A stretch of DNA of 29,699 nucleotides from a virus (IMGVR_UViG_3300036982_000212:1-29699), one strand, 5' to 3'. Shown: positions 1 to 19,869, counted from the first letter of the stretch. The notes: generated by a model not told the origin, from the letters alone. Translations and numbers: made by a program.

Positions 1-2074
1 CAATAGTACCAGCCACGATGTCCTGAATCTGCTCCTCGGACATACCGGCCTGCACGGCGGAGATACGCTGCGTCTCGGCTTGGTAAGCCTTGATTTCAGC
101 CTCGTAGTCCTTCCGCTGCTGCTCCTGCGCCTCGATAGACTTGGCGACGTTCTGCAGCATCTGGTGCATCTGCTCCATCTCCTGCCCCATCGCTTGAATC
201 TGCTGATTCGCGGCTTCCAAGGCGGGATTCTCGTCGTTGTCTTGCAGCAATTTGGGGTCAATCGTCTTCTGCAGACGCTTCGCCATTTCCTGAGCACCCG
301 GCCAGTCCATGTTCTTCACGAACAAGTCACCAGCCACCTGCCACAACTGCGGGTTGCCCTGCAGAATCTGCGACATGGCTTCCATCGACTCCTGACGCTT
401 GGTCATGTACGACGGGCCAGTAGTCACGCAGACATCGTACTTGCCGACAGACGGATTGTAGATTTTCTCAATCACAATGCCGTTTTCGTCCACGATTTCG
501 CGGACAGGCTCGGGCTGCTGGGGGTCAATCCGCGCAGTCTTTGTCTCACCGTCAATGCCGATGATGCGGGCAATGCGCTGGGTGTCGTAAATCTTGGGGA
601 TAAGGTCAACAAGTTGGCGCGTGACGTAGCGGATGGCGCGAGCCAGGTTGTCAACGTAGTGGTATGTGCCGGTGTCGCCTTGCCGTTCACGCGCCAAAAT
701 TGCCTTGCCGGAACGCTCGTTAGAGGTCGCGCCAATGCTTGAGTCGTACTGTCCAGTGGTGGCCTTGATGTCGTCAGACGCACCAGCCTTAGCCTGCAGC
801 AGTCCCGAGGACGCCATAGGCGGCTGTGCGCGTGATGGCAGCGGCAACACCGAACCCGAGCCGTCCGTAACGTCAGGGTTGACCTCAAGGTACGGCCAGT
901 TGTTGGTGTTGGCAGTCTTCCACTGCTGCTCGTAGCCCTCAAACTGCCCACCGTAACCAATAAACGGGGCTTTCGGGGCAAGGGCAAGCATCTCGGCTTC
1001 TTGGGAAACCCAGTAGTTGTACATCCGCTGGGCATCCTTGGCATTACGCACAAGACCCGAAACGTACATCCGACCGTCAATTTCCCACTCGTTGCCAACC
1101 ACGCGGACAACCGGAATAGACTCACCAACCCAGTCCTGACACTCCAGCATCTGGTAACCGTTGGTCTTGCACCACTTTACGGTTTTCACGTCCGTGGGAC
1201 GCTGGCGCAGGATGGGCATACCCATCGCCTCGGCACGCTTGGCCTCGGGCGAACCCTGAATAGCCGTGACGTTACCGGGGTACAGGTTGAGCGTCTTGCG
1301 CTCATGCTCGATGTAGAAGTATTCAGCGATACGGACGGTTCTGTCGCTAATCCACTGCGACAAACCTTGGTCGCCGATACCCCGCGTCATAATAGACGAG
1401 ATAGGCTCGGCATCCGGAAACTGCCGTTCGTACTCATCCATCGTCAGGTCTTCAGTGATGAAGCACCACTGGGCATCCGACCCGCAAGGGTCTTGGATGG
1501 TGGGGTCCATGTACACGGAAAACGAGTTACGGATGCGCTGAATGCGAATGTCTTGGTCAAAGGTGTTTTCATCGCAGTACTCGGTGAGTACGCGAATGTA
1601 ACCCTCGCCGTAGGTGACTTGGTTGTCACAGGCGGTGTCGTAGGCAACGTCGGCATCTGAGATGTACTCAATGTGCCGCACGATGCCGTCAAATATCTCG
1701 GCGACCTGTAGGTCAGCCTTGTCATCCACGGGGATGACTTTTCCCGAGGGCCGGTTCTGCCGTTGGTCGTTGGTGACCTGACGAACGTGCTGCGGCAGCT
1801 TATTGATGGTCAGACAGGGGCGAGCATTGATGGTCTGCCCCTGCACCGACCCTCGGGTCGCTAGTACGTCTGCGGGCCACTGCCACTGGTTGTCAGGGCT
1901 AGCGGCGAGGAATCGCAAATCGTCCAACTCGTCTTCGCGGGAATCCGCATACGCAGAAACAGCCTGCGTAAAGCGAGTCCGAGCGACGGCGAGGATGTCA
2001 GTGGCATCCTTGTCACGGCGGGAGGATGGGCTATTTGCCACCCGTGCCGCGCCAATCATGCCGGTGTCTGCCAT
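1..2074 (-). CDS. P22-like portal protein (3' end beyond the left edge of the window)
   Basis: Absent from the ORF track because it runs off the edge. Read from ATG at 2074: MADTGMIGAARVANSP...DELDDLRFLAASPDNQWQWP...ARPCLTINKLPQHVRQVTNDQRQNRPSGKVIPVDDKAD; the RPCLTINKL...NDQRQNRP signature is typical of P22-like portals. The frame is consistent at the left edge and the gene lies downstream of terL. Confidence 0.92.
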   Translation of the reverse strand, partial: MADTGMIGAARVANSPSSRRDKDATDILAVARTRFTQAVSAYADSREDELDDLRFLAASPDNQWQWPADVLATRGSVQGQTINARPCLTINKLPQHVRQVTNDQRQNRPSGKVIPVDDKADLQVAEIFDGIVRHIEYISDADVAYDTACDNQVTYGEGYIRVLTEYCDENTFDQDIRIQRIRNSFSVYMDPTIQDPCGSDAQWCFITEDLTMDEYERQFPDAEPISSIMTRGIGDQGLSQWISDRTVRIAEYFYIEHERKTLNLYPGNVTAIQGSPEAKRAEAMGMPILRQRPTDVKTVKWCKTNGYQMLECQDWVGESIPVVRVVGNEWEIDGRMYVSGLVRNAKDAQRMYNYWVSQEAEMLALAPKAPFIGYGGQFEGYEQQWKTANTNNWPYLEVNPDVTDGSGSVLPLPSRAQPPMASSGLLQAKAGASDDIKATTGQYDSSIGATSNERSGKAILARERQGDTGTYHYVDNLARAIRYVTRQLVDLIPKIYDTQRIARIIGIDGETKTARIDPQQPEPVREIVDENGIVIEKIYNPSVGKYDVCVTTGPSYMTKRQESMEAMSQILQGNPQLWQVAGDLFVKNMDWPGAQEMAKRLQKTIDPKLLQDNDENPALEAANQQIQAMGQEMEQMHQMLQNVAKSIEAQEQQRKDYEAEIKAYQAETQRISAVQAGMSEEQIQDIVAGTI

Positions 2075-2080
2075 ATGCGG

Positions 2081-2497
2081 TTACAGGCAGTGAATGACAG
2101 CGAAGTTCAGCACCACGGCTTCGGCCAACGCAGTAGCAGCCGTAGTGTTGCGCAGCACGATAACCGCCGAGCCAGCGGCAAGGCTGTCAACCCACACCTG
2201 ATACGAGTTGGCAGTGTTGCCCGTGGACAACTGCACAACGAGGATGTCGTTGACGCTAAGGTTGTCGTTGTTAAACGTGAACGACACGTTGGTTACGCCC
2301 GCAAGGCTGGCAGCGTTCATCGTGATACGGCCAGCCGACTTGTTCAGCGAGACGGCAGTACTCTTGCTTGTGGCCTGCGTGACGGTGCCTTGAGCGTCGG
2401 TCGTGTAACCAAACTCGTCGGAGGCGAGAACCTTGTCCGCGCCGATGATGTTCTGGTCTTCGTAGGCGACGCCAATTGGCTTCGTGTTAACGGTCAT
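2081..2497 (-). CDS. Small Ala/Thr/Val-rich putative virion structural protein
   Basis: ATG at 2497 lies 2 nt after the terL stop (MTVNTKPIGVAYEDQ...). Beta-strand-like composition; located between terL and portal. Confidence 0.7.
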   Translation of the reverse strand: MTVNTKPIGVAYEDQNIIGADKVLASDEFGYTTDAQGTVTQATSKSTAVSLNKSAGRITMNAASLAGVTNVSFTFNNDNLSVNDILVVQLSTGNTANSYQVWVDSLAAGSAVIVLRNTTAATALAEAVVLNFAVIHCL

Positions 2498-2499
2498 TT

Positions 2500-4032
2500 T
2501 TAGGCTCCCATCCAAGAATTGCTGACAGTGCCGTCCCTGTAGGTTCGGACGGGGTTTCGCGCAGTATACTCCCGATGCGCCACAGGGAAAGCAAAAGTTA
2601 CCGCGATGGCATCCGCAGCGTCCGGGGAGGGTAGTCCACGGGACTTCATGTCCTTTTTGCTTTCGAGCTGGATAGCCCCCGAGGAGTCGATAATCTTGCG
2701 GGGGTTGACCAAGTCAGACTTGAGTTGCCGGTCCTCCTTCATAGAGGCGGTCTTTAGCCAGTCCCGCATGGCACCCCATATCTCGGCGCGCTTGTTTTTC
2801 CACGCCACGGGATTCTTGGCCTTCCAGCCAAAGTTCACGCCCCGGACCTTGTACTTTTGCTCGGTTAGGCGGTCTAGGATGCCGTACCCCAGCCCGCCTT
2901 CGTCTATCACCGTCAGGGTAGGCCGGAAGTCCTCAATCGCCTCAATCACCCGCCCAACGATAGCCATCGTGTCCTCACCGGAGTACCGGCGGATAGCGAC
3001 CAAGTCGCGCCCCTTCCGCACCGCAATTACGGTGGAGTCTAGTCCCCCACGGGCGGGGTCTACCCCGATGACCACGGCAGCGTTCTCGTCCTTGTAGGCG
3101 GGGCGCTTAAACGCCTCATCCACCCAGTGGGCAGCGATAAACTGGTCGTCGCCGGAGGACGGGAACTCCCCGTACACCTCAACCTTAGCCTGGGGTGAAT
3201 CCTCGCCGTATTCCTCAATGATTTGCTTGTAGACAGCGTTGTCGGTGCCTTCTACGTCTAGCGAGTTGATGCTACGGGATGTCCAAAACGCGCGTTTAGC
3301 GTTAAAACACTCAAAAAAGTAGCCGTTAGGGCGGCGGGGGTTAGAAAACGCCATCCAAAAGCGGTTTGGCGTGTTCTCGGTGAAAAAACCTTGGCTAACG
3401 TCCCAGATTGCGTCCGGAATACCGCTGGCTTCGTCAAAAATGACCATCACGCCGTCGTGGTTATGCACACCAGCGTAGGAATCTGGGTTCTCCGCAGACC
3501 ACAGGCGGCCTTCTACCGACCAGTAGCGCGTACCCTTACGCAAATCACGCTCTACCAACTCCGCAACCCACTTAGCGGGCATGACACGGGTAGCCGATAT
3601 CTCAAACCAGTGGCTGTTTATCAGCATCGCCAGCCACTTAGTGATTTCCGCCCATGTCACCGAGCGCAACTGGGCTTCCGAGTTAGCCGAGACGATGATG
3701 GTAGACCCGATGCGGGTAGTGACCATCCACAGGATGAGCCACGACACTAGTGCCGACTTGCCGATACCGCGACCGGAGGCAACCGCCAAGCGGAATACAT
3801 CGAATGTTTCCGCGTCTACCTTGCCGTTGTTCGCCGCGATGTGCGTCTTCAGGTCACGCAACACCTCCCGCTGCCACTTACGCGGTCCACGGAAGTGTTC
3901 TAGCGGCGTACCCTTTTCACCCCACGGGAAGGCGAAGTTTACGAACGCCTCTGGGTCGTTGGCTATGGCGGGTGACCATAGTTTAGCCATGAGCAATTGC
4001 TCATCGGCAGAGGAGTATCGCGGTTCCTGCAT
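2500..4032 (-). CDS. terL: Terminase large subunit
   Basis: 510 aa with Walker A (ASGRGIGKS), Walker B (VIFDEASG), coupling motif (FSNP) and RNase H-like nuclease acidic motifs (IGVDPARGG, SPDAADA). Confidence 0.96.
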   Translation of the reverse strand: MQEPRYSSADEQLLMAKLWSPAIANDPEAFVNFAFPWGEKGTPLEHFRGPRKWQREVLRDLKTHIAANNGKVDAETFDVFRLAVASGRGIGKSALVSWLILWMVTTRIGSTIIVSANSEAQLRSVTWAEITKWLAMLINSHWFEISATRVMPAKWVAELVERDLRKGTRYWSVEGRLWSAENPDSYAGVHNHDGVMVIFDEASGIPDAIWDVSQGFFTENTPNRFWMAFSNPRRPNGYFFECFNAKRAFWTSRSINSLDVEGTDNAVYKQIIEEYGEDSPQAKVEVYGEFPSSGDDQFIAAHWVDEAFKRPAYKDENAAVVIGVDPARGGLDSTVIAVRKGRDLVAIRRYSGEDTMAIVGRVIEAIEDFRPTLTVIDEGGLGYGILDRLTEQKYKVRGVNFGWKAKNPVAWKNKRAEIWGAMRDWLKTASMKEDRQLKSDLVNPRKIIDSSGAIQLESKKDMKSRGLPSPDAADAIAVTFAFPVAHREYTARNPVRTYRDGTVSNSWMGA

Positions 4033-4373
4033 TACTCTACGCTGGCGTAGGGGGACGGCATCTGCCCGTACATACTGTTCAGCGCGTTCTGCCCACGGTA
4101 CGGGCGCATACCACGGTTACGCATAAGCGGCTGCTGCTGTTGGCGCATACCCATCTGCGGGTAGCCCATCATCTGCGGCATCATCTGCCCGTAGGGTTGC
4201 GCAAAAGCCCCACCATAGCCCATACCCCCACTGCCACCAACAGTAAAAGGGTCACCACCGTACGAACCAGGCAGCACCATAGAGTTCTGACCCATACCAG
4301 AGGATTGACCATACTTAGGGGTACTCACAGGCATTTGGTAGTTAGGCATTCCGCCAAAGTTGGGATAGTTCAC
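4032..4373 (-). CDS. Low-complexity G/M/Q/P/Y-rich hypothetical protein
   Basis: GTG start overlaps the upstream stop (GTGA), preceded by a GGAGG RBS; its TAA overlaps the terL ATG (TAATG). It fills the terS-terL gap exactly. Confidence 0.75.
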   Translation of the reverse strand: MNYPNFGGMPNYQMPVSTPKYGQSSGMGQNSMVLPGSYGGDPFTVGGSGGMGYGGAFAQPYGQMMPQMMGYPQMGMRQQQQPLMRNRGMRPYRGQNALNSMYGQMPSPYASVE

Positions 4374-4789
4374 GCTACGTCCTCCGCAACAATCACGCGA
4401 GACTGTGCAGCCTCTAACGCCGCAACAATACTAATCTTCTGGTACACGTCCACGCTCACCTCCGACCGTGCCGTCCACCCAAACTGATGCTGCAACACCG
4501 ACAACGCAGCCTTGGCATCCCCGCCCTCCGCAGCCGAATACACAGTACGGCTAACGGCCAACTCTGCATCTGCACGACCCTTCTGCTCTGCCAGTTCGGC
4601 AATGGGGTCCATCTGGCACAACCGCCGATACTCACTAGGCAGCATCCCCGCAGCAAGGGCAAGCGAGTCACCCTTTAGCCCGAGACGTGCAGCTTCGTAG
4701 ATACCCTCCAGTGCCTCAGGGGTGGCACGCAACTCACGGGCAACCACAGGGATACTGCGGAACACAGTGGGGATGGTTGCGAGGTTCAT
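4370..4789 (-). CDS. Putative terminase small subunit
   Basis: 139 aa, helical/HTH-like N-terminal half, GDAKAALSVLQHQFGW segment resembling small terminases; first gene of the packaging operon. Confidence 0.7.
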   Translation of the reverse strand: MNLATIPTVFRSIPVVARELRATPEALEGIYEAARLGLKGDSLALAAGMLPSEYRRLCQMDPIAELAEQKGRADAELAVSRTVYSAAEGGDAKAALSVLQHQFGWTARSEVSVDVYQKISIVAALEAAQSRVIVAEDVA

Positions 4790-4800
4790 GGGGGGAGATT

Positions 4801-4806
4801 AGCATA
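4801..4806 (-). promoter_or_regulatory. Possible -10 element (TATGCT) of the late/packaging promoter
   Basis: TATGCT just upstream of the terS ATG, preceded by a T9 tract. No consensus -35 and no Shine-Dalgarno sequence. Confidence 0.35.
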
Positions 4807-4879
4807 CAAAAAAAAATTGTTCACGGGGGTACCGTTACAGTCACGGCCCTTGCGTCGGACCTACCCGGGGGGGATGGCG

Positions 4880-4976
4880 TGCTGCACTGCCGCATGGATG
4901 TTGCATAGCAACAATGCTGCATTGCGTCATGCGTGCTGCACTGCGTCATGCATAGCGTAGTGCTGCACTGCAGCAT
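4880..4976. repeat. Array of five degenerate 16-bp palindromic repeats, consensus TGCTGCA(C/T)TGCnnCAT
   Basis: TGCTGCACTGCCGCAT 4880-4895, TGTTGCATAGCAACAA 4899-4914, TGCTGCATTGCGTCAT 4915-4930, TGCTGCACTGCGTCAT 4934-4949, TGCTGCACTGCAGCAT 4961-4976. Confidence 0.85.
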
Positions 4977-5203
4977 GGCCAGTCACGTTCGCATCATGCG
5001 TGCCAGGCTAGCGTGCCAGTGCGCAGTGTCATGCGCTAGTGTTAGGTGAACAGTACTAGCAGGGTAGCAGTACAAGGGAAGTGAGTAAAACCCGTTTACC
5101 CTAAAAAGGGTTGTCACTTAGAATTTCACTGTGCGCGTGCGCATGTGTGTGTGAACATCCACAGTTATGTTGGTAGATGACCTTTTTCAGGGCAAACCAA
5201 CAC

Positions 5204-5222
5204 TGTACAAACTTTTTGTACA
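5204..5222. promoter_or_regulatory. Operator-like inverted repeat TGTACAAA-CTT-TTTGTACA
   Basis: Perfect 8-bp arms ending 6 bp upstream of the early -35 box. Confidence 0.55.
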
Positions 5223-5228
5223 AACCCC

Positions 5229-5257
5229 TTGCACATACACTTTTAGTAGTGCATACT
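5229..5257 (+). promoter_or_regulatory. Sigma70-type early promoter
   Basis: -35 TTGCAC (5229-5234), 17-bp spacer, -10 CATACT (5252-5257), AT-rich upstream. Followed by a GCCGC/GCGGC hairpin, a GGGAG RBS and ATG 5297. Confidence 0.75.
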
Positions 5258-5296
5258 TCCCCCATGCCGCAATTCAGCGGCGAATGGGAGAACGAG

Positions 5297-5446
5297 ATGA
5301 ACAAGCTTTTGAATGCATTCCGCGCAGAACCTACTGAAGTAAACCGCGCCAAGCTCGCCAAGTACCTGCAGAAGCATATGATGGCTCTTTGCCTGGCAAG
5401 CTCTGCAGAGATTGCGTTCCTGAAGTCGCACGGGTTTGCGGTATGA
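5297..5446 (+). CDS. Early hypothetical protein (49 aa)
   Basis: RBS GGGAG at 5286-5290; MNKLLNAFRAEPTEVNRAKLAKYLQKH...; ATGA overlap with the next gene. Confidence 0.75.
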   Translation: MNKLLNAFRAEPTEVNRAKLAKYLQKHMMALCLASSAEIAFLKSHGFAV

Positions 5447-5676
5447 ATCTCGCTACTCGCACTGATATGCAAACCGCATACCGTCAAAAATTCGCTAAGC
5501 GTGCAAACGAGTCTGTAGCCTTTTGGCTTGCTCGCATCAACTACGCTATCGCGGACATCCATGCAACATTCCCGCTGCACTCGCACGATAGCGAGTATGC
5601 GCAGCGCTTGTATCTTGAGCTGGATGAAGCTCGCGTTGCATTCCAACAAGCAAACCGCGTAAAAGTGGCCGCATGA
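5443..5676 (+). CDS. Early hypothetical protein (77 aa)
   Basis: ATGA coupling at both ends; MNLATRTDMQTAYRQKFAK...KVAA. Confidence 0.75.
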   Translation: MNLATRTDMQTAYRQKFAKRANESVAFWLARINYAIADIHATFPLHSHDSEYAQRLYLELDEARVAFQQANRVKVAA

Positions 5677-5807
5677 TTCCCGTAGGCTATCGTCCCATCC
5701 GCATCGCCAGCAACAAGCCCGCCATGCCGCGTTATGTGCTTGTTGCCTGGCTCGTTGCCTGTTTCATCCTGTACTGTTTCGCAGAGTACCACTACCCTAG
5801 CCTGTAA
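5673..5807 (+). CDS. Small predicted membrane protein (44 aa)
   Basis: Below the ORF-track cutoff. ATGA-coupled; MIPVGYRPIRIASNKPAMPRYVLVAWLVACFILYCFAEYHYPSL has one hydrophobic segment. Confidence 0.65.
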   Translation: MIPVGYRPIRIASNKPAMPRYVLVAWLVACFILYCFAEYHYPSL

Positions 5808-5880
5808 CCTTTCTGCTAGCGCATTGGAAACAGTGCGCTATCGGGAATCGTTCCACTAACACTATGCGCCATGCGCGCGA
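5797..5880 (+). promoter_or_regulatory. Structured leader element, copy 1 (long hairpin plus short hairpin before the RBS)
   Basis: TAGCGCATTG-GAAA-CAGTGCGCTA stem (5817-5840), then TATGCGCCATGCGCGCGA; homologous to 7154-7234. Confidence 0.7.
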
Positions 5881-5891
5881 AAGGACGAATT

Positions 5892-6668
5892 GTGAAATTA
5901 CTGAATGTTGACGCGAACGCAAAGACAATTAAAGGCCAAAAACGCGGTTTCATGACTGCAGTTTTGTACCTGTCGCCCGGTAACCTGTCCGGGACTGAAC
6001 TGTGCGCCATGTCCAAACTTGCAGGATGCCGCGTTGCTTGCCTGTCTACTGCAGGACGTGGTGGTATCGCCGCCGGTCGCGCAGTGTTTACCGCGCCTAA
6101 TGGCGATACGTTGCCAGACAATGCAATCCAGCACGCCAGGCTTGCGCGCACTGCACTATTCCTGAATGACAATGCAGCATTCATGGCGCAATTGGTGCGA
6201 GAGATTACCGCATTCGTTGCCAAAGCAAAGCGTGCAGGATTGGTGCCTGTTGTACGCTTGAATGGTACTAGCGACATTCGTTTCGAGGACATTCCCGTAC
6301 AAGGCAAGGCTAACGTGTTTGCACTGTTTCCGCGTATTCGTTTCTATGATTACACCAAACTACCCAACCGTAGGCGTGCCATTGGTGTGCGCAACTATTC
6401 CCTAACCTTTTCCTATTCCCATGTACCTGGGTTTGCGCCTGTGGTAGCGCGTGCTGTCGCCACCTATGGTGCCGGTGTTAACTACGCTGCCGTGTTTGCA
6501 GGTAAGACGCTACCGGCACACTTCCTAGGCCGTGCTGTGGTGAATGGTGACGAATCCGATTTGCGGTTTCTGGATAAGCCTGGCGTTGTCGTGGGTTTGA
6601 CTGCTAAGGGTAAGGCGCGTCGCGACACGTCTGGTTTTGTGGTTCCGCGCCAAGTGGTGGCCGCATGA
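5892..6668 (+). CDS. GP88-family (radical-SAM-like) phage protein
   Basis: GTG at 5892 after an AAGGA RBS. Motifs LYLSP...LCAMSKLAGCRVACLSTAGRG (C-x7-C-x3-C), RLNGTSD, FYDYTK, LTFSYS and NGDESDLRFLD, recognised as gene-product-88-like. Confidence 0.75.
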   Translation: MKLLNVDANAKTIKGQKRGFMTAVLYLSPGNLSGTELCAMSKLAGCRVACLSTAGRGGIAAGRAVFTAPNGDTLPDNAIQHARLARTALFLNDNAAFMAQLVREITAFVAKAKRAGLVPVVRLNGTSDIRFEDIPVQGKANVFALFPRIRFYDYTKLPNRRRAIGVRNYSLTFSYSHVPGFAPVVARAVATYGAGVNYAAVFAGKTLPAHFLGRAVVNGDESDLRFLDKPGVVVGLTAKGKARRDTSGFVVPRQVVAA

Positions 6669-6877
6669 CACTATCCTACGTATACGTACCTGGTCGCACT
6701 GTTTACCGTGTCCGTGACTGGCACGATAACGTCACAGTGCGCATAAACCACTATTCCGCGCGCTACAGCGTGACAATGCTGGATAACGATAGCGGCAACG
6801 TCCTACCTGTGGCGCGCACGTACTCGCGGTTTACGGATGCGTTGGCGTACGCTACTAGCCTAATGAGTGCCGCATGA
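6665..6877 (+). CDS. Early hypothetical protein (70 aa)
   Basis: ATGA coupling at both ends. Confidence 0.7.
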   Translation: MTLSYVYVPGRTVYRVRDWHDNVTVRINHYSARYSVTMLDNDSGNVLPVARTYSRFTDALAYATSLMSAA

Positions 6878-7152
6878 GCTGGTATACCCGTTTTCGTCCC
6901 ATGTCACCGGCCCCGTATACCGCCAACGGCGAGCCGTTTAGCCTGCTATGTATTGGTGACTGTGGCGGTACTGTGGCCAGTACTGCCGCATTCTGTGACG
7001 TCACCGACAAGCCTGGCGCATTCTACTGCCAATCCTGTGCCGCGCGTTATGCGTGCGAGGGATGCATGGGCCGTGGCTGGCATGACGGCATAGTGACAAT
7101 GGAAGAGACGCAATGCGGCCATTGTGCCGGTACTGGTATTGATTACCGCTAG
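6874..7152 (+). CDS. Cys-rich putative zinc-binding protein (92 aa)
   Basis: CIGDC, CQSC, CEGCMGRG and CGHCAGTG; the last two are DnaJ-type CxxCxGxG repeats. Confidence 0.7.
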   Translation: MSWYTRFRPMSPAPYTANGEPFSLLCIGDCGGTVASTAAFCDVTDKPGAFYCQSCAARYACEGCMGRGWHDGIVTMEETQCGHCAGTGIDYR

Positions 7153-7153
7153 C

Positions 7154-7234
7154 CTAGCCTAACCTGTTAGCCCATTGCCTGCAGTGGGCTAGCGGGTAAC
7201 CGTTAGGGTTATAGTTATGCGCCATTGTGCGCGA
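7154..7234 (+). promoter_or_regulatory. Structured leader element, copy 2
   Basis: TAGCCCATTG-CCTG-CAGTGGGCTA stem (7168-7191), extended by CCTAAC/GTTAGG, then TATGCGCCATTGTGCGCGA; homologous to copy 1. Confidence 0.7.
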
Positions 7235-7244
7235 GGGGTAAACC

Positions 7245-7682
7245 GTGAAAACGTACATTGTGGAAACTACAGACGGGGAAAAAGTCCGTCAACCGTACCT
7301 GTCAACTGCAAATGACGTGCGCCATGCTTTGAGGGAGTGGCTAGGGGACATGGGGACCGAGCGTGACGTGCAGCGCATCTACGCGAATGCGCGCGTCATG
7401 GAGGCCATAAGCTGGTCCGAATACGGGCAAGGCTTTAAGTTTATCAACCGCTTTGAACCATTGGACTACTTGGTAACGCAGTTGGATAGTCCAGAATGCC
7501 AAGCGCTAGAAGCTTGGATTTTGGAGAATGACGTGCGGAACCAGCGTGCGCCACTAGGGGATTCCATCATGGCCGCCTGGCTTGCTAATGCCGATGAATC
7601 GCAAGGCATAGTTGAAATTCCGGCCCGTTGGTCCGTTACTGGCGTGCCGGTGACGTTTGACGTTTGGGGAGCCGCGCCATGA
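7245..7682 (+). CDS. Early hypothetical protein (145 aa)
   Basis: GTG start after a GAGGGG RBS; ATGA overlap with the next gene. Confidence 0.75.
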   Translation: MKTYIVETTDGEKVRQPYLSTANDVRHALREWLGDMGTERDVQRIYANARVMEAISWSEYGQGFKFINRFEPLDYLVTQLDSPECQALEAWILENDVRNQRAPLGDSIMAAWLANADESQGIVEIPARWSVTGVPVTFDVWGAAP

Positions 7683-7852
7683 CGCCAGTGTCACGGCCAG
7701 CCTGCCCCGTCTGCTACCGGGCCGGTGCGATACCCTGCCCCTTTACGGATGCCAGCCTACCCTGTCTGCACTGTGACGGGACCGGGTTCGACCTTTACTG
7801 GCTAGGGCCGGACCTGCCAGCATGGGAGCCCGCCCCGTGCTGTACTTGCTAG
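7679..7852 (+). CDS. Small DnaJ-type zinc-finger-like protein (57 aa)
   Basis: ATG 7679 with a GGGAG RBS; CPVCYRAG and CLHCDGTG motifs. Confidence 0.6.
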   Translation: MTPVSRPACPVCYRAGAIPCPFTDASLPCLHCDGTGFDLYWLGPDLPAWEPAPCCTC

Positions 7853-7899
7853 GCCTGCTACTAGCCGCTGCCATTGCCGAGCTGTTTGACATAGGCTAA
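7837..7899 (+). CDS. Possible 20-aa hydrophobic peptide
   Basis: GGGAG at 7824-7828, then GTG; MLYLLGLLLAAAIAELFDIG; ends just before the terminator. Confidence 0.4.
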   Translation: MLYLLGLLLAAAIAELFDIG

Positions 7900-7924
7900 C
7901 CTTCTCTCGCGTGTCGATATCTTG

Positions 7925-7952
7925 CCCGGCCTAACCCGCCGGGTTTTTTTTT
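7925..7952 (+). terminator. Rho-independent terminator of the early operon
   Basis: CCCGGC-CTAACCC-GCCGGG hairpin followed by T9. Confidence 0.92.
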
Positions 7953-7954
7953 GC

Positions 7955-9367
7955 CTACTGCACCAGCCGCAAGCTCGGAAACAGGGTTTCCAATGCGTCC
8001 CGGCACTGCGCGCTATTCATCGTGCTATAAACGCTATCGGGCGCGGTATATATTGTGCGCTTATTCGGATTGCGTGCGGTTCCGATATGGCCGCGATTAG
8101 TCCAGCCCGATAATGCCATTACGCCAGTTAATACGTTAACAGGGATAATCCCACGATTAATAATCGGCTCTATCTTGCGCGCAATATCACCCCACGGACC
8201 GCCGATAATACCTTCCGCGAACACTCCGCGCCTGGCGCGAACGTCCGCCAAGAGCGTTTCTTCCACTGATTCCTGCCGGACATTGAGCAATCTACGCTTT
8301 GCTTCCGTCATGGGAGGGGGCGCAGCCGGATTGAATGCCCCTAGGGCGCGCTGGGAGAGCGTATAAGCCACGTTTCCTATGCCCCCGCTACCGTACCACT
8401 GCCACAGGGCGCTAGCGGCTTCCTGCGTCATCTTGGGCGCATCACTCCAAAGCACGAACCAGCGCCGGTCGTCGTCGGATAGGTGGATAGCGTCGCGGAA
8501 GTTGCTCATGGCGATGGGCAAGCCCCGATTTAATGCAGGGTACGGGTGCTGCATTTTCCGATTAACCATTATCAACTCTGGGGGCGCGGCACATAATACC
8601 TTCATAAACTCTTCCACCGCCCGTTTATCGCGATTTACTCCCCGGCGTAATTCATTTAGCAGCAATACTTCATTTTCCAACGCATAACCGAATTGGCTGA
8701 TAATGTCCTCGCCACGGACGACGGCGACGTTCTGCAATTGGGGACCGCCCACGGCTTGCAGGAACGGGTGGAGGGCGGAGTCCTTGCCGGAACCGGGGTG
8801 GCCGGCTATCAGGATGCCGTGATTGATTTTGCGGTCCGGGTGCTGGAATTTGAAGGCCAGACAGTCCAGCAAGTGATTACGCTCCCAGTCACAGGGGAGC
8901 AATCCGGCTAGGTGGTCCAGCCAAGGGGACGCATCACCGGCTACCGGCTGCACTCGGGCGTTCCGCCACAGGTTCCCCCATGCTTCCCCGTGCCGTTCTA
9001 GCAACGCACCGGCACCAGGCGCATACGTCAACCCGGCGGCTATCACGCCACCCATAGCGGCGCGGTTCTCGTCAAAGCTGTTACTGGCATGGATTGGACC
9101 GCCAGTGTGGATACTGATGCACTTGACGTGCCGGTAGTGGGCGTTGAATGACTGCCGGGTGATAGGGCGACGGTTCACCAAGTCGAAATACCCGTCAGCA
9201 TCGGCAAGGTAGGCAAACCGGCTGAACCACTCGGCTACCGGCAGCGTGGAGATGTCACGGGCGGCTACGGCTTCAGCGGCCTGTAGGATGCTCGCTGATG
9301 TCTCGCCTGCGCTTGCCATGCGCTGTGCGGCGGCGGCTAGGGCTTCCGATAGGGGCTTGTCGCTCAC
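7955..9367 (-). CDS. DUF5906/D5-like (SF3-type) primase-associated helicase with no evident primase domain
   Basis: GTG 9367 (GTGA overlap, GGAGG RBS). Walker A GHPGSGKD, Walker B LLLNEL, MSN...IHLSDDDRRWFV motif and PPMTEAK motif. Confidence 0.75.
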   Translation of the reverse strand: MSDKPLSEALAAAAQRMASAGETSASILQAAEAVAARDISTLPVAEWFSRFAYLADADGYFDLVNRRPITRQSFNAHYRHVKCISIHTGGPIHASNSFDENRAAMGGVIAAGLTYAPGAGALLERHGEAWGNLWRNARVQPVAGDASPWLDHLAGLLPCDWERNHLLDCLAFKFQHPDRKINHGILIAGHPGSGKDSALHPFLQAVGGPQLQNVAVVRGEDIISQFGYALENEVLLLNELRRGVNRDKRAVEEFMKVLCAAPPELIMVNRKMQHPYPALNRGLPIAMSNFRDAIHLSDDDRRWFVLWSDAPKMTQEAASALWQWYGSGGIGNVAYTLSQRALGAFNPAAPPPMTEAKRRLLNVRQESVEETLLADVRARRGVFAEGIIGGPWGDIARKIEPIINRGIIPVNVLTGVMALSGWTNRGHIGTARNPNKRTIYTAPDSVYSTMNSAQCRDALETLFPSLRLVQ

Positions 9368-9678
9368 GAGATATCGACCTCCCGAAGGGTGTACCGGCCC
9401 GTTTTTCCCTTCGTCCAACCCTGCACAAGAATCTTCCACCCGGCTTCCCGCAAAAGGGGCAGGGCAGGGCTATCCATCATCTTTTTTATGCGGGCTGAGA
9501 CGTTGCTGCCGGAGGTGGATTGTACCCCACAAGTCCCCTCAGGGCCGACGCAGACGATGTCGATGATGCCGAACAGGTCTTGCCGAATACGGGCGTGGGG
9601 GTTCCACTTTTCCACTACGGCAACAAGGGGGAACCGCTTGCGCAGGTCGGCAAGGGAGCGTTGCGTGGGGCTGCTCAC
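9364..9678 (-). CDS. Putative PD-(D/E)XK-type nuclease / Holliday junction resolvase-like protein
   Basis: GTG 9678 is coupled to the upstream stop; pattern VEKWN...QDLFGIIDIVCV...GVQST. Confidence 0.6.
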   Translation of the reverse strand: MSSPTQRSLADLRKRFPLVAVVEKWNPHARIRQDLFGIIDIVCVGPEGTCGVQSTSGSNVSARIKKMMDSPALPLLREAGWKILVQGWTKGKTGRYTLREVDIS

Positions 9679-10109
9679 GCTAGCACCGCCATGTCCACGG
9701 TGAAGCCTGGCGTGCCATCGGGGTCGTCCGGTATGCGCACGCCGACGATGCCAAAGTTCTGCGACTTCTCGCGGGGGTTGCCTTGCCCCAACCACGTCCA
9801 CGGGTGACGGGTCTGGTGGGGGGTCAGGCGGTAGTTAGCCATGATGTAGGCGGTCAGGGCGGGCATCCGGTTGGGGTTGATGACGGGTGAGGGTGTGCTG
9901 CTCAGGATGCGCTGAAAGTCCTCAATACCGGGCGGCTGCTTCATCCCGTTCATCACGGACAGGCCGTTGATGACGGTTTCGTCGTCCACGCGGTCCACCG
10001 TCTGCGCCATCGCTAGAGGCATTCCACGGGGGTACATGGCGGTAAGTTTCTCGCCAAACATCTGGACCATGCGCTTCCAGACGCGCTCGGCACGGGGGGT
10101 CAAATTCAT
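9675..10109 (-). CDS. Putative lambda P-like replication protein (helicase loader)
   Basis: ATGA-coupled directly downstream of the initiator; N-terminus AERVWKRMVQMFGEKL. Assignment is mainly positional. Confidence 0.5.
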   Translation of the reverse strand: MNLTPRAERVWKRMVQMFGEKLTAMYPRGMPLAMAQTVDRVDDETVINGLSVMNGMKQPPGIEDFQRILSSTPSPVINPNRMPALTAYIMANYRLTPHQTRHPWTWLGQGNPREKSQNFGIVGVRIPDDPDGTPGFTVDMAVLA

Positions 10110-10741
10110 TTGCGGCTCCATGTGGTGGCACGGTTGCGGCGTTCGCCAGCGTTCCGTAGCCATGAGTTAAACGTGCGACTCCAGTCAGCCTTCACTTTCC
10201 CCTCGCTGAGAAAGTAATCACGAAACTTCATCAGTTCATCGTAGAGCACCACGCCCATTTCCTTGGCAAGGTGTTCGTGTTGGATTTCATGACACCAATC
10301 GTCGGGCAGCCGGGTTCCGGTTGCTTTACGTTCAGCAGACTTTTTTTTCGTTGCCCCCCGTGAGGGGGGATTAAGGGGGGTTTCTCTACTCTCCCTCTCC
10401 TCTCTCTCTAGACAAGCATCCTGCAAGCAACTTGCTAGCATCACGCTAGCATCATCCCCTTCAACATTGAAAAAACCCTTGTCAATCAATGGCTTGAGTC
10501 CCTGCGCCAACTCATTATCAGTCAACCTGAGACGATACGCCACGCCATCGTAAGCTTGGTCGATGGTTCCGTTGTCGTACTCGCTTGCCAACAGCCACAA
10601 GCATGGTGCTAGCGCCTTGCTAGCAACAGGCAAGCGCATAAAGTCAGGGTCATCAAGCAGGGAACGATACAACTTTATCCAAGGTGGCCGCCTGGTCTTG
10701 TAGTGCTGAAACGCACCCCAGTTTTTGGGCGTCAATTTCAT
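10106..10741 (-). CDS. Replication initiator (lambda O analogue; replisome-organiser-like N-terminus, DnaT-like C-terminus)
   Basis: NWGAFQHYK...PPWIKLYRSLLDD at the N-terminus; internal iterons and a purine-rich tract; RLPDDW...KFRDYF...KADWSRTFNSWLRN at the C-terminus. Confidence 0.8.
   Translation of the reverse strand: MKLTPKNWGAFQHYKTRRPPWIKLYRSLLDDPDFMRLPVASKALAPCLWLLASEYDNGTIDQAYDGVAYRLRLTDNELAQGLKPLIDKGFFNVEGDDASVMLASCLQDACLEREERESRETPLNPPSRGATKKKSAERKATGTRLPDDWCHEIQHEHLAKEMGVVLYDELMKFRDYFLSEGKVKADWSRTFNSWLRNAGERRNRATTWSRK
10381..10456. repeat. Putative replication origin: four 11-bp iterons plus a CT/AG tract
   Basis: CAAGCATCCTG, CAAGCAACTTG, CTAGCATCACG, CTAGCATCATC (10413-10456), next to the pyrimidine tract at 10381-10409, inside the initiator gene. 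Confidence 0.7.
10598..10641. repeat. Second array of four 11-bp iteron-like units
   Basis: CAAGCATGGTG, CTAGCGCCTTG, CTAGCAACAGG, CAAGCGCATAA. Confidence 0.55.
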
Positions 10742-11295
10742 GGCGCACCTTTGCTGTTTCTTTTTTCCTTTTCGACGTTCAATTCGTGCTCGCTCGGCAG
10801 CTGGCAACAGCCGTAGTAGTCAAACATCAACCCAGTCAAAAACCCTATTTCTCGCAACTCTTCACCAGTCGGCTTTTCATTCCCGCCGTTCCATCCCCAA
10901 ATCGCATCAATGATGCCTTGGCAATAATCTTCATCATCCCAAAGTTCAATTTCCTGATGCTCTCTGTCCTGATTCATCCACTCATCAAAAATCATCCCGT
11001 GGATGTACCCAAGAACTTGATTCAAAACGGGCGTGTTAAAGTTTTTCATGCTGACCATCATGGCCGACTGCAAACGATGCCGAGTCTCATGGCACTTTTC
11101 ACAAAGAACCATCAACTCCTGGTTGCTGTAATTCCAAACTTCACGGCCCTTGTGATAAATGACGTGATGCACGTTGAGCGTGTTTTCCTTGCTGCCACAA
11201 TCTTGGCACTGAAAATCCGCTGCACTCAAAACCTCTAGCCGCTTTTTCTGCCATTTAGGACTGCGGTACTGTTCACTGTACGTTTTCTTAGCCAC
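10738..11295 (-). CDS. HNH endonuclease-domain protein
   Basis: GTG 11295 with a GGGAG RBS. SPKWQKKRLEVL...CQDCG...LNVHH...LMVLCEKCH; visibly more AT-rich than its neighbours. Confidence 0.8.
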   Translation of the reverse strand: MAKKTYSEQYRSPKWQKKRLEVLSAADFQCQDCGSKENTLNVHHVIYHKGREVWNYSNQELMVLCEKCHETRHRLQSAMMVSMKNFNTPVLNQVLGYIHGMIFDEWMNQDREHQEIELWDDEDYCQGIIDAIWGWNGGNEKPTGEELREIGFLTGLMFDYYGCCQLPSEHELNVEKEKRNSKGAP

Positions 11296-11515
11296 TCGAT
11301 TCTCCCGTTGGTTGCTGATTGTCGCGGCACCGTTTGACCCTCTCCCGAAGGCGCTGCTGGTAGGCACTAACCCTTGCCCGATTGCAAACTACGCAAGCGT
11401 TCGTGAGCGTGTACCTTTCTGTGCCATGTCCGTGCTTGCAGGGCTGACCTTGGTAACGAACCTTGCCCGCCTCCACTGCTTTCCATCTCTCCGCAAGCAT
11501 TGCTGCTGAAGACAT
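11288..11515 (-). CDS. Small Cys/His zinc-binding phage protein
   Basis: YQGQPCKHGH..ERYT....CVVC motif; AAGGAG RBS. Confidence 0.7.
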   Translation of the reverse strand: MSSAAMLAERWKAVEAGKVRYQGQPCKHGHGTERYTLTNACVVCNRARVSAYQQRLRERVKRCRDNQQPTGESSG

Positions 11516-11532
11516 AATAACTCCTTTTGCTT

Positions 11533-11560
11533 ATACTACACTAACTGAGTCGCTAATCAA
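11533..11560 (-). promoter_or_regulatory. Possible internal sigma70 promoter for the replication genes
   Basis: TTGATT-16 bp-TAGTAT in the only intergenic gap of the leftward operon. Confidence 0.4.
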
Positions 11561-11568
11561 GCGTGACG

Positions 11569-11775
11569 CTAGCCCTTCTTGTAGCCCGTCAGCGTGTAGG
11601 ACGCCCACTTCTTGCTTTTGCGGTGAACCATCTCGGTTTCCACCGTGTAGCCTTCGGCGCGGATGTTAAAGATGATGGCGGCTAGCCGGAAGCACCCAAA
11701 CTTCGCTAGTGCCTGAATGGGCGTGATGGGCTTGCCAGTTAGCAAGTAGGCGCGGACATCATTAATCTGGCTCAT
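11569..11775 (-). CDS. Winged helix-turn-helix protein (HTH_39-like)
   Basis: MSQINDVRAYLLTGKPITPIQALAKFGCFRLAAIIFNIRAEGYTVET pattern. Confidence 0.8.
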   Translation of the reverse strand: MSQINDVRAYLLTGKPITPIQALAKFGCFRLAAIIFNIRAEGYTVETEMVHRKSKKWASYTLTGYKKG

Positions 11776-12043
11776 GGGTCACCTCCACAGTCTCAAACGC
11801 CCCTTCGCTGGCAACCTGCGGCGGGTGCGTGATTGCGCCCTTTATGGCCGCCAAACCCAGCGCCCACGGCGGCAACGGGCAATCCGCAACAAGCACTTTG
11901 TTGGTCATGCGCTCGAGCTGGAATTGGTGACCGGAAGGCACGTTGTCCTCCCGCCAGGCGCTAACGGCCTGCGTGGTCAGGCCCAAGGCCCGAGCGACAC
12001 GCTGCGCGTTACCGAACAATGCAATGACTTCTGACTTTTTCAT
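11762..12043 (-). CDS. cro: Cro-like repressor (P22 Cro/YdaS type)
   Basis: MKKSEVIALFGNAQRVARALGLTTQAVSAW...VP....FQLERMT; first gene of the leftward operon; GAGGG RBS. Confidence 0.85.
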   Translation of the reverse strand: MKKSEVIALFGNAQRVARALGLTTQAVSAWREDNVPSGHQFQLERMTNKVLVADCPLPPWALGLAAIKGAITHPPQVASEGAFETVEVTHEPD

Positions 12044-12070
12044 GTTTCCCTCAAAAAAGATTGGACAGGG

Positions 12071-12129
12071 GGGTTGACAACAACAACCCTTGAGTGCAAC
12101 CTTAACACATCACTTGAATTGGTCAAGTG
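12071..12129. promoter_or_regulatory. Divergent promoter/operator region
   Basis: Rightward TTGACA(12074)-17 bp-CAACCT; leftward TTGACC-16 bp-TAAGGT. Inverted repeats GGGTTG-N7-CAACCC (12071-12089) and CACTTGA-N5-TCAAGTG (12111-12129) cover the two -35 boxes. Confidence 0.7.
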
Positions 12130-12145
12130 GAACGGGAGAAACAAA

Positions 12146-12280
12146 ATGACGCATGAAGAAATCATGGACGCGCTGCTGGCACTGCTCGACGCAGTCCTGC
12201 ACAACGAGCCGACTCCGGCTCTCATGTTGGAGAAGGCCCGCGAGGCTCTCCGCCTTTTAAATCAGGTGGGCTTCCAATGA
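12146..12280 (+). CDS. Hypothetical protein (44 aa)
   Basis: GGGAG RBS, ATG 12146, ATGA overlap downstream. Confidence 0.7.
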   Translation: MTHEEIMDALLALLDAVLHNEPTPALMLEKAREALRLLNQVGFQ

Positions 12281-12741
12281 GCATCATTGCCCTGCGCACT
12301 GACGGCGAATACACGTGGCTCGAAATTGAGGGCCAGTCGTTCTTCATCACGCCGAACCCCGAGCACGCCGAGGAAATTTGCATCCGCTGCGTGGAGGACT
12401 TGGAGTTCCTGCGCGAGACGGTCAAGCGCAAAATCAACGCCATCAAGTACCAATCGGACGACGCCGCTGACGTAAAAAATTCCAAGGTGGAGAAGTTGGA
12501 GCGTGCGCTAGCCAACGTAGGCGTAGGCGTGTGCGACCACATTGAGGAAGTGCATTACGAGGGCGTAGACCTCGTCATCGGCTATAACTTTGACCATGAC
12601 GAGTGCCACCGTAACAGCCCCGCCTACCTTGAAGTGATTAGCATCACCCACCGTGGGCAGGACATTACCGGGCTGATTGACCTGCTGGGCGGTCCTGCGG
12701 GCTTTGACAAGATTGCCGACTTGCTGGAGGGCGATAAGTGA
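12277..12741 (+). CDS. Hypothetical protein (154 aa)
   Basis: Coupled at both ends; phage-like codon usage. Confidence 0.75.
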   Translation: MSIIALRTDGEYTWLEIEGQSFFITPNPEHAEEICIRCVEDLEFLRETVKRKINAIKYQSDDAADVKNSKVEKLERALANVGVGVCDHIEEVHYEGVDLVIGYNFDHDECHRNSPAYLEVISITHRGQDITGLIDLLGGPAGFDKIADLLEGDK

Positions 12742-12929
12742 TTGGCATCATTGAGCCTGAAGTGTGCCTTGACCATCTAAGCCAGGCTCTTGCCTGCGCG
12801 GGGTTGGAAATGGTGCAGACCAGCGAGTCGGTCATCATCCGCGTGTCCGACGCTTATAAGCATTGGGGCTGGACTAGCATCCACACCGTTCCGCCCCTCA
12901 TCCGTTTTCAGGGGAAATACCATGAGTGA
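12738..12929 (+). CDS. Hypothetical protein (63 aa)
   Basis: GTGA overlap with a GGAGG RBS. Confidence 0.65.
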   Translation: MIGIIEPEVCLDHLSQALACAGLEMVQTSESVIIRVSDAYKHWGWTSIHTVPPLIRFQGKYHE

Positions 12930-13539
12930 CAATCCAAACCAGCAAGCCGCGTGGCTGTTAGAGCGCGTGGGCTTTGTGACTGCTAGCCAGTTCAAGCACC
13001 TGCTGCCCGGCAAGAAGGGTGGTTACCTTGCCGCCCGCGACACCTACAAGTGGCAGCTTGTGACCGAGCGGCTGACTGGCCGCGCTACGGAACACTACGT
13101 CAACCCGGCGATGCAGTGGGGTATCGACCAAGAGGGCTTTGCGCGGGCTGAGTTTGTGCAGCGTATGCGGCTCATGGTGGACTTGGTCGGCTTCATTAAG
13201 CACCCGACGCTGATGTGCGGCGCGTCTCCGGACGGCGTCATCAACGGCGGCGATGGGTTAGTGGAGTTCAAATGCCCGACCACGAACACGCACTTGCAAA
13301 CCATCATGGACGGCATGGACCCCATGCATATGCCGCAACTGCAGGGGCAGATGTGGATGACTGGCGCGAAGGAAGTGTACTTCTGCAGTTACGACCCGCG
13401 CCTGCCAAAGGGCATGGATTTCTTTGTAGACCGTATTGACCGCGACCAGGCGTACATCGACACGCTGGAGACTGAGGTCTGCAAGTTTCTGAACGAAATA
13501 AACGACACGATTGCCACCCTACAGGAGAAGGCAAAATGA
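12922..13539 (+). CDS. Lambda-exonuclease/YqaJ-family exonuclease
   Basis: WLLERVGFVTAS, AMQWGIDQE, GASPDG, LVEFKCP and QLQGQMW motifs. Confidence 0.93.
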   Translation: MSDNPNQQAAWLLERVGFVTASQFKHLLPGKKGGYLAARDTYKWQLVTERLTGRATEHYVNPAMQWGIDQEGFARAEFVQRMRLMVDLVGFIKHPTLMCGASPDGVINGGDGLVEFKCPTTNTHLQTIMDGMDPMHMPQLQGQMWMTGAKEVYFCSYDPRLPKGMDFFVDRIDRDQAYIDTLETEVCKFLNEINDTIATLQEKAK

Positions 13540-14108
13540 TGAACCTTGACCACAGCAACGCCGCACTGTTTGCCGCGCTTGCACTTGCCCAGTCGGAAGT
13601 AGAAAACGCTACCAAGGGCAGCACCAACCCGCACTTCAAGTCAAAGTACGCTGACCTCGCCGAGGTGCTGAACACCGTGCGCCCGGTCTACAGCAAGCAT
13701 GGCATTGCCATCATCCAGTCCACGGGGTTTGACGGCGTGATGGTGTCGGTCACCACGGCACTGGTCCACAAGGAAGGCGGCTACGTTACCTCTGTGGCGT
13801 CCTGCACGCCCGCCAAGACGGACGGCCAGGGCGTGGGCAGTGCTACGACCTATTTGCGTCGTTACAGCCTTGCAGCGGCCTGTGCGGTCGCCCAAGAGGA
13901 TTTAGACGGCAACGACTCTGCGCACAACCGTCCGGCACCTGCACCTGCCAAGCCGAGCAACCAGTTGTTGGACCTGCTGGCGGCTACCGAGGATGCGACT
14001 AGCGAGGAAGTCCTCCGCAACCTGTACAAGGCGACCGAGAGCCTTGTCGAGCATGAGAAGGGCGAGGCCCGCAAAGCCATCGTCCAGAAGCGTTCCACCA
14101 TCAAGTAA
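13536..14108 (+). CDS. erf: ERF-family single-strand annealing protein
   Basis: NPHFKSKYADL and GSATTYLRRYSL...EDLDG motifs. Confidence 0.93.
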   Translation: MMNLDHSNAALFAALALAQSEVENATKGSTNPHFKSKYADLAEVLNTVRPVYSKHGIAIIQSTGFDGVMVSVTTALVHKEGGYVTSVASCTPAKTDGQGVGSATTYLRRYSLAAACAVAQEDLDGNDSAHNRPAPAPAKPSNQLLDLLAATEDATSEEVLRNLYKATESLVEHEKGEARKAIVQKRSTIK

Positions 14109-14116
14109 GGATAGAA

Positions 14117-14506
14117 ATGAACATCATCACCATCACCGGGCGCGTCGGTCAGGACGCCGAACTCCGCCAGACCCCGCAGGGCCGCGCTGTTGCCAACTTC
14201 AAGGTCGTCGTGGACGTAGGGTTTGGCGACAAGAAGCACGCCCTGTGGATTGACTGCTCCATGTTTGGGCAGCGCGCTGAGAAGGTCGCCAAGTACATCA
14301 CCAAGGGGACTCCGGTCACCGTGTACGGGCAGTTTGACCTGCGGACGTACACCACGAAGAACGGACCAGGCGCGTCCATCACCTGCGATGTGGCCGACAT
14401 TGCTTTGCAGGGCGGTAAGCCGAGTGGGGAGTCTCAGGCTGCGCCCGAGCCTTTCGATGACAAGAAGGCGGCTGACGCTGCGTTTAGTGATGAAATCCCG
14501 TTCTGA
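14117..14506 (+). CDS. ssb: Single-stranded DNA-binding protein
   Basis: MNIITITGRVGQDAELR OB-fold start; acidic DEIPF C-terminus. Confidence 0.96.
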   Translation: MNIITITGRVGQDAELRQTPQGRAVANFKVVVDVGFGDKKHALWIDCSMFGQRAEKVAKYITKGTPVTVYGQFDLRTYTTKNGPGASITCDVADIALQGGKPSGESQAAPEPFDDKKAADAAFSDEIPF

Positions 14507-14528
14507 TTACAGGCGAGAGCTGGTGTGG

Positions 14529-14558
14529 GCAGCGGAACTTTCCGCTGCTTACATTATT
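14529..14558 (+). terminator. Hairpin / probable partial terminator after ssb
   Basis: GCAGCGGA-ACTT-TCCGCTGC followed by TTACATTATT. Confidence 0.6.
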
Positions 14559-14573
14559 GGAAAAGGAAAACAA

Positions 14574-16620: not shown

Positions 16621-16742
16621 CTGAGTTAGAACTGTTTGGGTACGCCGTGGTTGCCGCTACCAGCATCTGCGTGGCGGTGTGGTTGACGGCAGCGGCGTAC
16701 ATCGTGCTGTCGGTGTGGGAGTGGGCGAGGAGAAGGGCGTGA
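16617..16742 (+). CDS. Small membrane protein (41 aa)
   Basis: GGAGG RBS, coupled at both ends; MTELELFGYAVVAATSICVAVWLTAAAYIVLSVWEWARRRA. Confidence 0.65.
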   Translation: MTELELFGYAVVAATSICVAVWLTAAAYIVLSVWEWARRRA

Positions 16743-19860: not shown

Positions 19861-19869
19861 GACGATTCC

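Follow-up and report, generated by a model that had tools for sequence, protein, structure and literature searches.

The window, i.e., the whole stretch of DNA analyzed here (IMGVR_UViG_3300036982_000212, 29,699 nucleotides), is a 29.7-kb phage contig that makes up the entire assembly. Its genes include those for a portal protein (phrog_156), a terminase large subunit, a primase and a replication protein. Its nearest annotated terminase relatives are DSL-LC05 and MW202483 (68–69% identity); the MW202483 portal is annotated as P22-like, and the window phage is described here as having a P22-like portal. Eight open reading frames form a plus-strand operon (5297..7852) that is flanked by two minus-strand genes, a terS-like gene (4370–4789), named from its position before terL, and the primase gene (7955–9439). 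A candidate sigma70-type promoter, TTGCAC-17-CATACT, precedes the operon (5229..5257, plus strand). It is below the threshold of the promoter scan and absent from the scan listing; we infer it from the relative L569, which carries TTGACA-16-TACAAT, a much better promoter match, at the matching place. An intrinsic-terminator-like hairpin with a U-tract, found by the terminator scan, closes the operon (7924..7952, plus strand). Gene layout, candidate promoter and terminator point to a polycistronic transcript.

Inside the operon lie two hairpin units. The gene behind copy 1 encodes a GP88-family protein (5892..6668, plus strand; PF17338, phrog_1617) and the gene behind copy 2 a 145-aa protein (7245..7682, plus strand) that matched no Pfam or PHROG family. 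Their GTG start codons lie 48 and 50 nt, respectively, past the 3' RNase III cuts predicted below. A 57-aa cysteine-rich protein (7679–7852) with a weak Anti-TRAP Pfam match (E 1e-4, under the gathering score) is retained at the operon end in several relatives. Three operon gene junctions (5668–5676, 6660–6668 and 6869–6877) have GCCGCATGA in common, with a similar sequence at 7674–7682. This junction reads Ala-Ala-stop overlapping the next ATG, recurs several times in L569 and could mark another cassette border or serve translational coupling. In both plus-strand gene blocks, a short hairpin lies between a promoter-like site and the first RBS (5261–5288 and 12111–12130), a possible 5'-terminal stabilizer. 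Imperfect direct repeats occur in the non-coding gap ahead of the operon (4877–4979) and within the replication-protein gene (10412–10635), presumably the position where lambdoid origins lie. A 563-aa ORF (14768–16459) with a long repetitive insertion presumably resembles a cytosine methyltransferase, judged by its motifs.

Architecture of the two hairpin units

The first-pass annotation had described a duplicated structured leader in two intergenic regions (5797–5894 and 7154–7247), and all motifs that it named are present there. Copy 1 is not entirely intergenic: the upstream ORF stops at TAA 5805–5807, i.e., the first 11 nt are coding. Each unit consists of a long hairpin, H1, followed by two short ones, H2 and H3. 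Two hairpins per copy had been noted before, H1 and H3; the small H2 between them had been missed.

H1 of copy 1 (5810..5847, plus strand) has a 10-bp core (5817–5826/5831–5840) with a GAAA loop, a C·U mismatch at position pb4 (5816·5841) and a 6-bp lower stem. In copy 2 (7162..7197, plus strand), the core (7168–7177/7182–7191) carries a CCUG loop and is followed by U·G at pb4 (7167·7192); here 16 bp are continuous, with an internal loop and further pairs below. The main stem hence exists as annotated and is longer than had been thought, with 16–17 stacked positions; in copy 1, the C·U mismatch lies beneath the core. Between the copies, one upper-stem pair changes from G-C to C-G while the U·G pair is retained and the loop differs (GAAA versus CCUG), in agreement with the compensatory change claimed.

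H2 of copy 1 (5844..5854, plus strand) coincides with the predicted new 5' end; with 4 bp and −2.4 kcal/mol it is weak, and the local minimum free energy structure opens 1 nt earlier than 5844. The 6-bp H2 of copy 2 (7195..7212, plus strand; −6.4 kcal/mol) opens 1 nt past the predicted new 5' end and shares sequence with the 3' strand of the lower stem of H1. H3 has 5 bp in both copies. In copy 1 (5865..5879, plus strand) the SD-like GAAAGG begins with the last G of H3, and in copy 2 (7218..7233, plus strand) H3 abuts the SD-like GAGGGG. A hairpin directly ahead of the RBS had been reported for both units, as had the common gene start GTGAAA, and both are found.

The two copies aligned with a local score of 59, compared with a maximum of 37 in 2,332 other 100-nt windows on both strands and of 28 over 2,000 shuffles. 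Indels hid the pair from a generic repeat finder, and blastn at word size 7 likewise gave no link between the copies. When the window was searched with a covariance model of both and related copies, no third copy emerged: the model returned the two copies with their reverse-strand shadows, and the next match had E 2.5. The core hairpins have z-scores of −6.1 (copy 1) and −5.7 (copy 2) on the plus strand. For the full ~100-nt regions of copies 1 and 2, z was −2.2 and −3.0 on the plus strand versus −1.2 and −0.3 on the minus strand. Structure at the RNA level on the sense strand, as argued previously, is thus borne out by a plus strand that folds, a minus strand that folds poorly and viral leaders that lie on the U·G strand (see below).

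Related elements and the core in other genomes

Searches by pattern and with the model brought the family to 19 elements, spread over 10 distinct contigs that include the window. Operon genes, terS or the primase link most of the contigs to the window; contig L544 is tied to the family solely via the element and one downstream gene. In an alignment of 15 sequences, 95.9% of cells pair, and two-sided changes occur at 9 of 21 pairs, three of them in H3. None of 500 shuffles was as high for pairing or two-sided changes, in a control that ignores kinship and uses a structure derived from the same 15 sequences; family P-values overstate independence, because the members are related and the set was picked by patterns from the window copies. 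Covariation among homologues, proposed as a check in the first-pass annotation, is strong both in the family and in the viral contig set described below.

The start codon lies 47–51 nt past the predicted cut in 13 of the 15 members, and a comparison of the 13 downstream proteins of sufficient length sorted them into 8 unrelated groups. In contigs from four other sequencing runs, genes are lost or replaced at the element borders. The joints in relatives, 5888>6761, 6853>7150 and 7234>7678, the last with 364 other letters, rest on contigs matched at 80% likeness, some with short sides. L569 has other genes behind both element copies. From the unrelated downstream groups, the fixed start spacing and the gene loss or replacement at the borders, we conclude that the unit is a gene-independent leader. 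One contig of run X6 matches 5616–5880, continues with about 240 other letters and resumes at 5863, i.e., the H3 segment (5863–5880) is repeated. In another X6 contig, the gene after copy 2 (7234–7678) is swapped for the 364 other letters. The X6 joints suggest insertion of gene-plus-leader units.

Changing gene content at these joints, the 8 unrelated protein groups and the other genes in L569 would also fit a DNA-level palindrome or a recombination cassette border that serves gene shuffling and not RNA processing. We consider this very improbable, because U·G pairs are retained solely on the sense strand, folding of the minus strand is poor and the loop varies in length and sequence. Moreover, shared leader homology alone can give swapping, and the supporting joints come from the contigs of 80% likeness with their partly short sides.

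The full-element pattern returned 8 loci in viral contigs, of which only 2, on one contig, were real. Among metagenome contigs, 11 of 28 loci had the full stem; the other 17 lacked it and were dropped as chance matches. A relaxed hairpin scan of 80 loci of GP88 relatives was empty, and the model applied to 46 GP88 loci found weaker, longer-loop hairpins right after GP88 in four, plus one marginal match (E 0.19). These four (L030:5068–5161, L035:3609–3706, L039:1699–1792 and L040:4433–4529; 24–37 bits with the model) are longer leaders in another phage group. The element therefore does not travel with GP88. At the 79 loci of primase relatives, the model matched only the 2 closest. In the closest terminase relatives, DSL-LC05 (searched over the whole record) and MW202483 (20000–38801 only), the element is absent, and annotated phages gave no meaningful DNA match. 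Rfam 15, which the first-pass annotation had proposed to search, contained no covariance-model match over either copy at E ≤ 5, and on 20 related loci it gave just two chance-level miRNA matches. We found no description of the motif or its class in literature that covers older and subscription papers thinly. The earlier suggestion of an undescribed cis-regulatory RNA holds in part, given sense-strand RNA-level structure, strong covariation and the lack of an Rfam match.

The core itself also stands ahead of ribosome-binding sites in many other viral contigs. A viral scan with three stem pairs left free, covering 26 of 64 collection parts, yielded 121 loci in 94 distinct contexts. All three free positions were paired in 49 of the 94, compared with 5.9 expected (maximum 17 in 5,000 permutations). 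Where enough flank was present (47 matches), an RBS and start codon followed 25–60 nt downstream in 38 cases on the U·G strand and in 2 on the other strand. The lower stem had a mean of 12.2 bp versus 5.1 in flank swaps. As controls, we replaced the U·G pair (db2). With C-G, 36 of 77 matches in the whole collection were fully paired and 16 were leaders; with U-A, the numbers were 22 of 92 and 4 in 55 of 64 parts. The fully paired fraction was similar for U·G and C-G (P = 0.54), and leader numbers scaled by our own arithmetic were about 96 for U·G, 16 for C-G and about 5 for U-A. For the 4-nt-loop pattern, we estimate about 300 stored viral stretches, with about half of the sampled matches fully paired. 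With a 3-nt loop and similar flanks, the same core recurs on several contigs of two proteobacterial MAGs (L492, L493, L502–L504, L515, L520 and L525); we regard these copies as a cellular or mobile repeat.

In cellular genomes, the same core was fully paired in 60 of 82 matches and was followed by a U-tract in 24 of 50, i.e., it was terminator-like. The core alone is hence not diagnostic. An intrinsic terminator or attenuator between genes would agree with these cellular matches and with a small hairpin with a T-rich tail that the terminator scan lists at 7189–7206. We give this explanation hardly any credence for the phage units: a U-tract is absent after H1 in both copies and after the core in all 47 viral matches, the scan gave 4 sites versus 3.4 expected by chance, and the clear terminator at 7924–7952 already closes the operon.

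Putative RNase III register of the long hairpin

RNase III sites like those of the T7 early transcript had been the first interpretation offered. The T7 hairpin L108:5861 fits the numbering of PMC1540722, with a GCAA loop, U12:G27, C13:G26, 9:30 as pb2 and a 28-nt product. With the register of this source, cuts are predicted at 5815/5816 and 5843/5844 in copy 1 and at 7166/7167 and 7194/7195 in copy 2 (plus strand). Both copies match the T7 R1.1 register at db1 (U-A), db2 (U·G), pb1 (G-C) and pb2 (A-U). Between the 5' cut and the loop, where 11 bp are expected, both have 10 pairs plus pb4. Together with 14 and 16 predicted lower pairs with internal loops, the 10-bp core gives about two helical turns around the cut. 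Among the aligned family members, the distal box is U-A in 15/15 and U·G in 14/15, which is partly built into the search patterns; pb1 G-C and pb2 A-U/U-A occur in 15/15. Three further family variants have A-U at pb1 in the distal-box register.

The T7-like reading thus stands for pair pattern and geometry, with two proximal-box positions off the E. coli in vitro optimum and the cutting itself predicted. The in vitro consensus of uR1.1, the minimal R1.1 substrate, has A-U at pb3 and A-U/U-A rather than G-C/C-G at pb4 (PMC1540722); pb3 is U-A in both copies and in 15/15 members. At pb4, copy 1 has C·U, as has native R1.1, and copy 2 has U·G, neither the optimum nor an antideterminant. The family has no A-U/U-A at pb4 (0/15), and instead C·U in 4, U·G in 4, G-C in 4, C-G in 2 and U·U in 1. 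Among in vivo E. coli duplexes, pb3 is U-A in 8/85, and pb4 is U·G in 0/85 and G-C/C-G in 21/85 (PMC6212723). For the loop, PMC1540722 reports no requirement in an RNase III substrate.

G-C/C-G at pb4 lowers cleavage 7–14-fold in vitro and leaves binding unaffected (PMC1540722). RNase III might hence bind the units and cut them poorly or not at all, with pb4 as a catalytic antideterminant, so that they act as a regulatory binding site or a graded cut; the 6/15 family members with G-C/C-G would fit. We find this quite unlikely, as the window copies carry C·U and U·G and the in vivo E. coli sites tolerate G-C/C-G in the proportion given above. Moreover, the broad class favors A-U: across 31 viral clusters, pb4, which the pattern left open, has A-U/U-A in 18 cases and G-C/C-G in 6, whereas the remaining free positions have 21 and 55, respectively (P = 7e-5). 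Such depletion of G-C/C-G is expected from the pb4 antideterminant.

We scored the hairpins with the in vivo E. coli pair matrix (PMC6212723 Table S4; 24 positions, threshold −25.5), using a column heuristic of our own that differs from that of the authors. Copy 2 was above the threshold (−24.9) and copy 1 (−26.0) and T7 R1.1 (−26.5) were below, on a matrix that, like the consensus, is that of E. coli and may not match the RNase III specificity of this phage's host. Only 9/15 family members passed. The R1.1 register was the best of 11 for both copies and for 12/15 members. Compared with permuted pairs, the upper 11 pairs scored better in copy 1 (p = 0.024) and no better in copy 2 (p = 0.46). 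In a blind matrix scan of the window, the copies, read in the R1.1 register, ranked 4 and 12 among 1,488 predicted hairpin loci, i.e., three hairpins outscored one copy and eleven the other. In the control scan of T7 1–8000, intergenic hairpins took the top 4 of 398 ranks, one each before genes 1.3 and 1.1 and one, on both strands, before gene 0.3. Searched with a degenerate motif plus a 10-bp pairing rule, the window yielded its two copies and nothing else, and T7 1–20000 yielded three intergenic hairpins. We take R0.3, R0.5 and R1.3 to be T7 early intergenic sites, assigned by position before genes 0.3, 0.5 and 1.3; the T7 records V01146 and NC_001604 are without RNase III site annotation. 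Similar box preferences are seen in the B. subtilis RNase III motif (PMC11780869) and are therefore not peculiar to E. coli.

Like T7 R1.1/uR1.1 (PMC1540722), the window units are intergenic hairpins upstream of an RBS in a polycistronic operon. They share the 10-bp core, the short free loop, the U-A/U·G distal box, G-C at pb1, A-U at pb2 and, in copy 1, C·U at pb4, with similar matrix scores in the same register. In contrast to T7, the window phage has a P22-like and not a T7-like portal, pb3 is U-A, and the units add H2 at the predicted cut and H3 before the SD; the three T7 hairpins have no helix opening at the H2 offset. T7 hairpins have internal loops or mismatches below the core, whereas the lower stem of the window units is nearly continuous, which makes double-strand cutting plausible. 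T7 R1.1 has an asymmetric internal loop. Such a loop is absent at the predicted cuts of the window, where the copy 2 stem is continuous and copy 1 has one C·U mismatch. Internal loops can restrict RNase III cutting to one strand (PMC1540722). Given the differences at pb3, at pb4 and in the asymmetric loop, and with cleavage itself a prediction, we regard the units as a variant of the R1.1-type processing signal and not as a strict member.

The two-helical-turn stem is also found in E. coli in vivo double-cleavage substrates (PMC6212723) and in the B. subtilis motif (PMC11780869), as are A-U at pb2, G-C at pb1 and an enrichment of U·G in the distal box. Those substrates are mostly host mRNA stems of loose sequence, whereas the window unit has a near-invariant core that is reused across phages.

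The hairpin at the predicted cut

The opening position of H2 coincides with the predicted 3' cut in 12 of 31 viral clusters with independent flanks, in a test with the pair span limited to 22 nt (null 5%, P = 2e-8). Within the family, this was found in 9/19 members exactly and in 15/19 within 1 nt, and among cellular same-core hairpins in just 2/39. A first version of the test that allowed long-range pairs gave 4/19 for the family and 11/31 for the broad class. The first base after the cut is G in 19/19 family members. Three members in which the UA/AU pairs lie one step closer to U·G keep this G and the distance from H2 to U·G. In copy 1 and three relatives, H2 has little stability (−2.4 kcal/mol or weaker).

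Protection of the processed end is the likeliest role of H2. A precedent is the S. aureus cspA 5' UTR, where an RNase III cut leaves a 52-nt leader with a short 5'-terminal hairpin that stabilizes the mRNA (PMC3386247). In the window phage, a leader of about 50 nt with a 5'-terminal hairpin would likewise result from a cut in a leader hairpin. The cspA leader is a single chromosomal primary leader, shown experimentally and with a gain in translation, whereas the window unit is a repeated intercistronic phage unit and its processing is predicted. Alternatively, H2 could stack on H1 and lengthen the RNase III substrate; coaxial stacking is mentioned for RNase III substrates (PMC1540722). The predicted opening of the SD after the cut rises from 0.31 to 0.55 in copy 1 and from 0.43 to 0.44 in copy 2. 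SD release by cleavage was ruled out as a general role, being inconsistent across 13 members.

A structured leader might also act without any RNase III cut, i.e., it could stabilize the message or tune translation by its folding or by binding another phage or host protein. Three conserved hairpins right before the SD, invariant core letters that could form a protein site, and pb3 and pb4 off the E. coli optimum would agree with such a role. It is nonetheless unlikely in our view, since the invariant pairs are those that RNase III reads and the loop is free. Furthermore, the H3 loops vary among family members, and neither G-C depletion at pb4 nor the start of H2 at the predicted scissile bond would be expected from a leader of this kind.

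We therefore propose as the probable reading, modeled on the T7 early message, that both units are plus-strand leaders cut by host RNase III, which leaves a leader of about 50 nt that likely starts with a protective hairpin. The conserved, covarying H1 on the sense strand places the predicted cut 47–51 nt ahead of the start codon (13/15); by comparison, its U-A and U·G pairs correspond to the RNase III distal box and its G-C and A-U pairs to the proximal box, spaced as in T7 R1.1. A transcript from the putative host-type promoter would be cleaved on the 3' side, 3 nt beneath the core (5843/5844 and 7194/7195), with probable 5'-side cuts at 5815/5816 and 7166/7167. H2, which statistically begins at the cut position, may then shield the new 5'-monophosphate from RNase E-type attack and, alternatively or in addition, may stack on H1 and so complete the RNase III substrate. 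Stability and level of each gene block could in this way be set independently, and the common leader would permit gene swapping behind it. T7 messages have ten RNase III sites, and T7 grows without RNase III (PMC6938266); the effect in the window phage may hence also be modest.

More tentatively, and with somewhat less than even confidence, we suggest that the units represent a widespread, uncatalogued phage "cut-and-cap" module. In such a module, an RNase III site with a near-fixed core would be fused to a hairpin at the scissile bond, downstream messages would be capped against 5'-end-dependent decay, and gene-plus-leader units would be exchangeable cassettes. The mechanism itself is old, as illustrated by T7 messages, which RNase III punctuates, and by the trimming of cspA-type leaders, and we claim no field-changing result even if the proposal is true. 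New would be its wide use by non-T7 phages through one searchable 24-nt core, with a hairpin locked to the predicted cut. If true, the module would yield a rule for annotating phage genomes, a natural collection of RNase III substrates with differences at pb3 and pb4, and compact parts for adjusting mRNA stability in operons.
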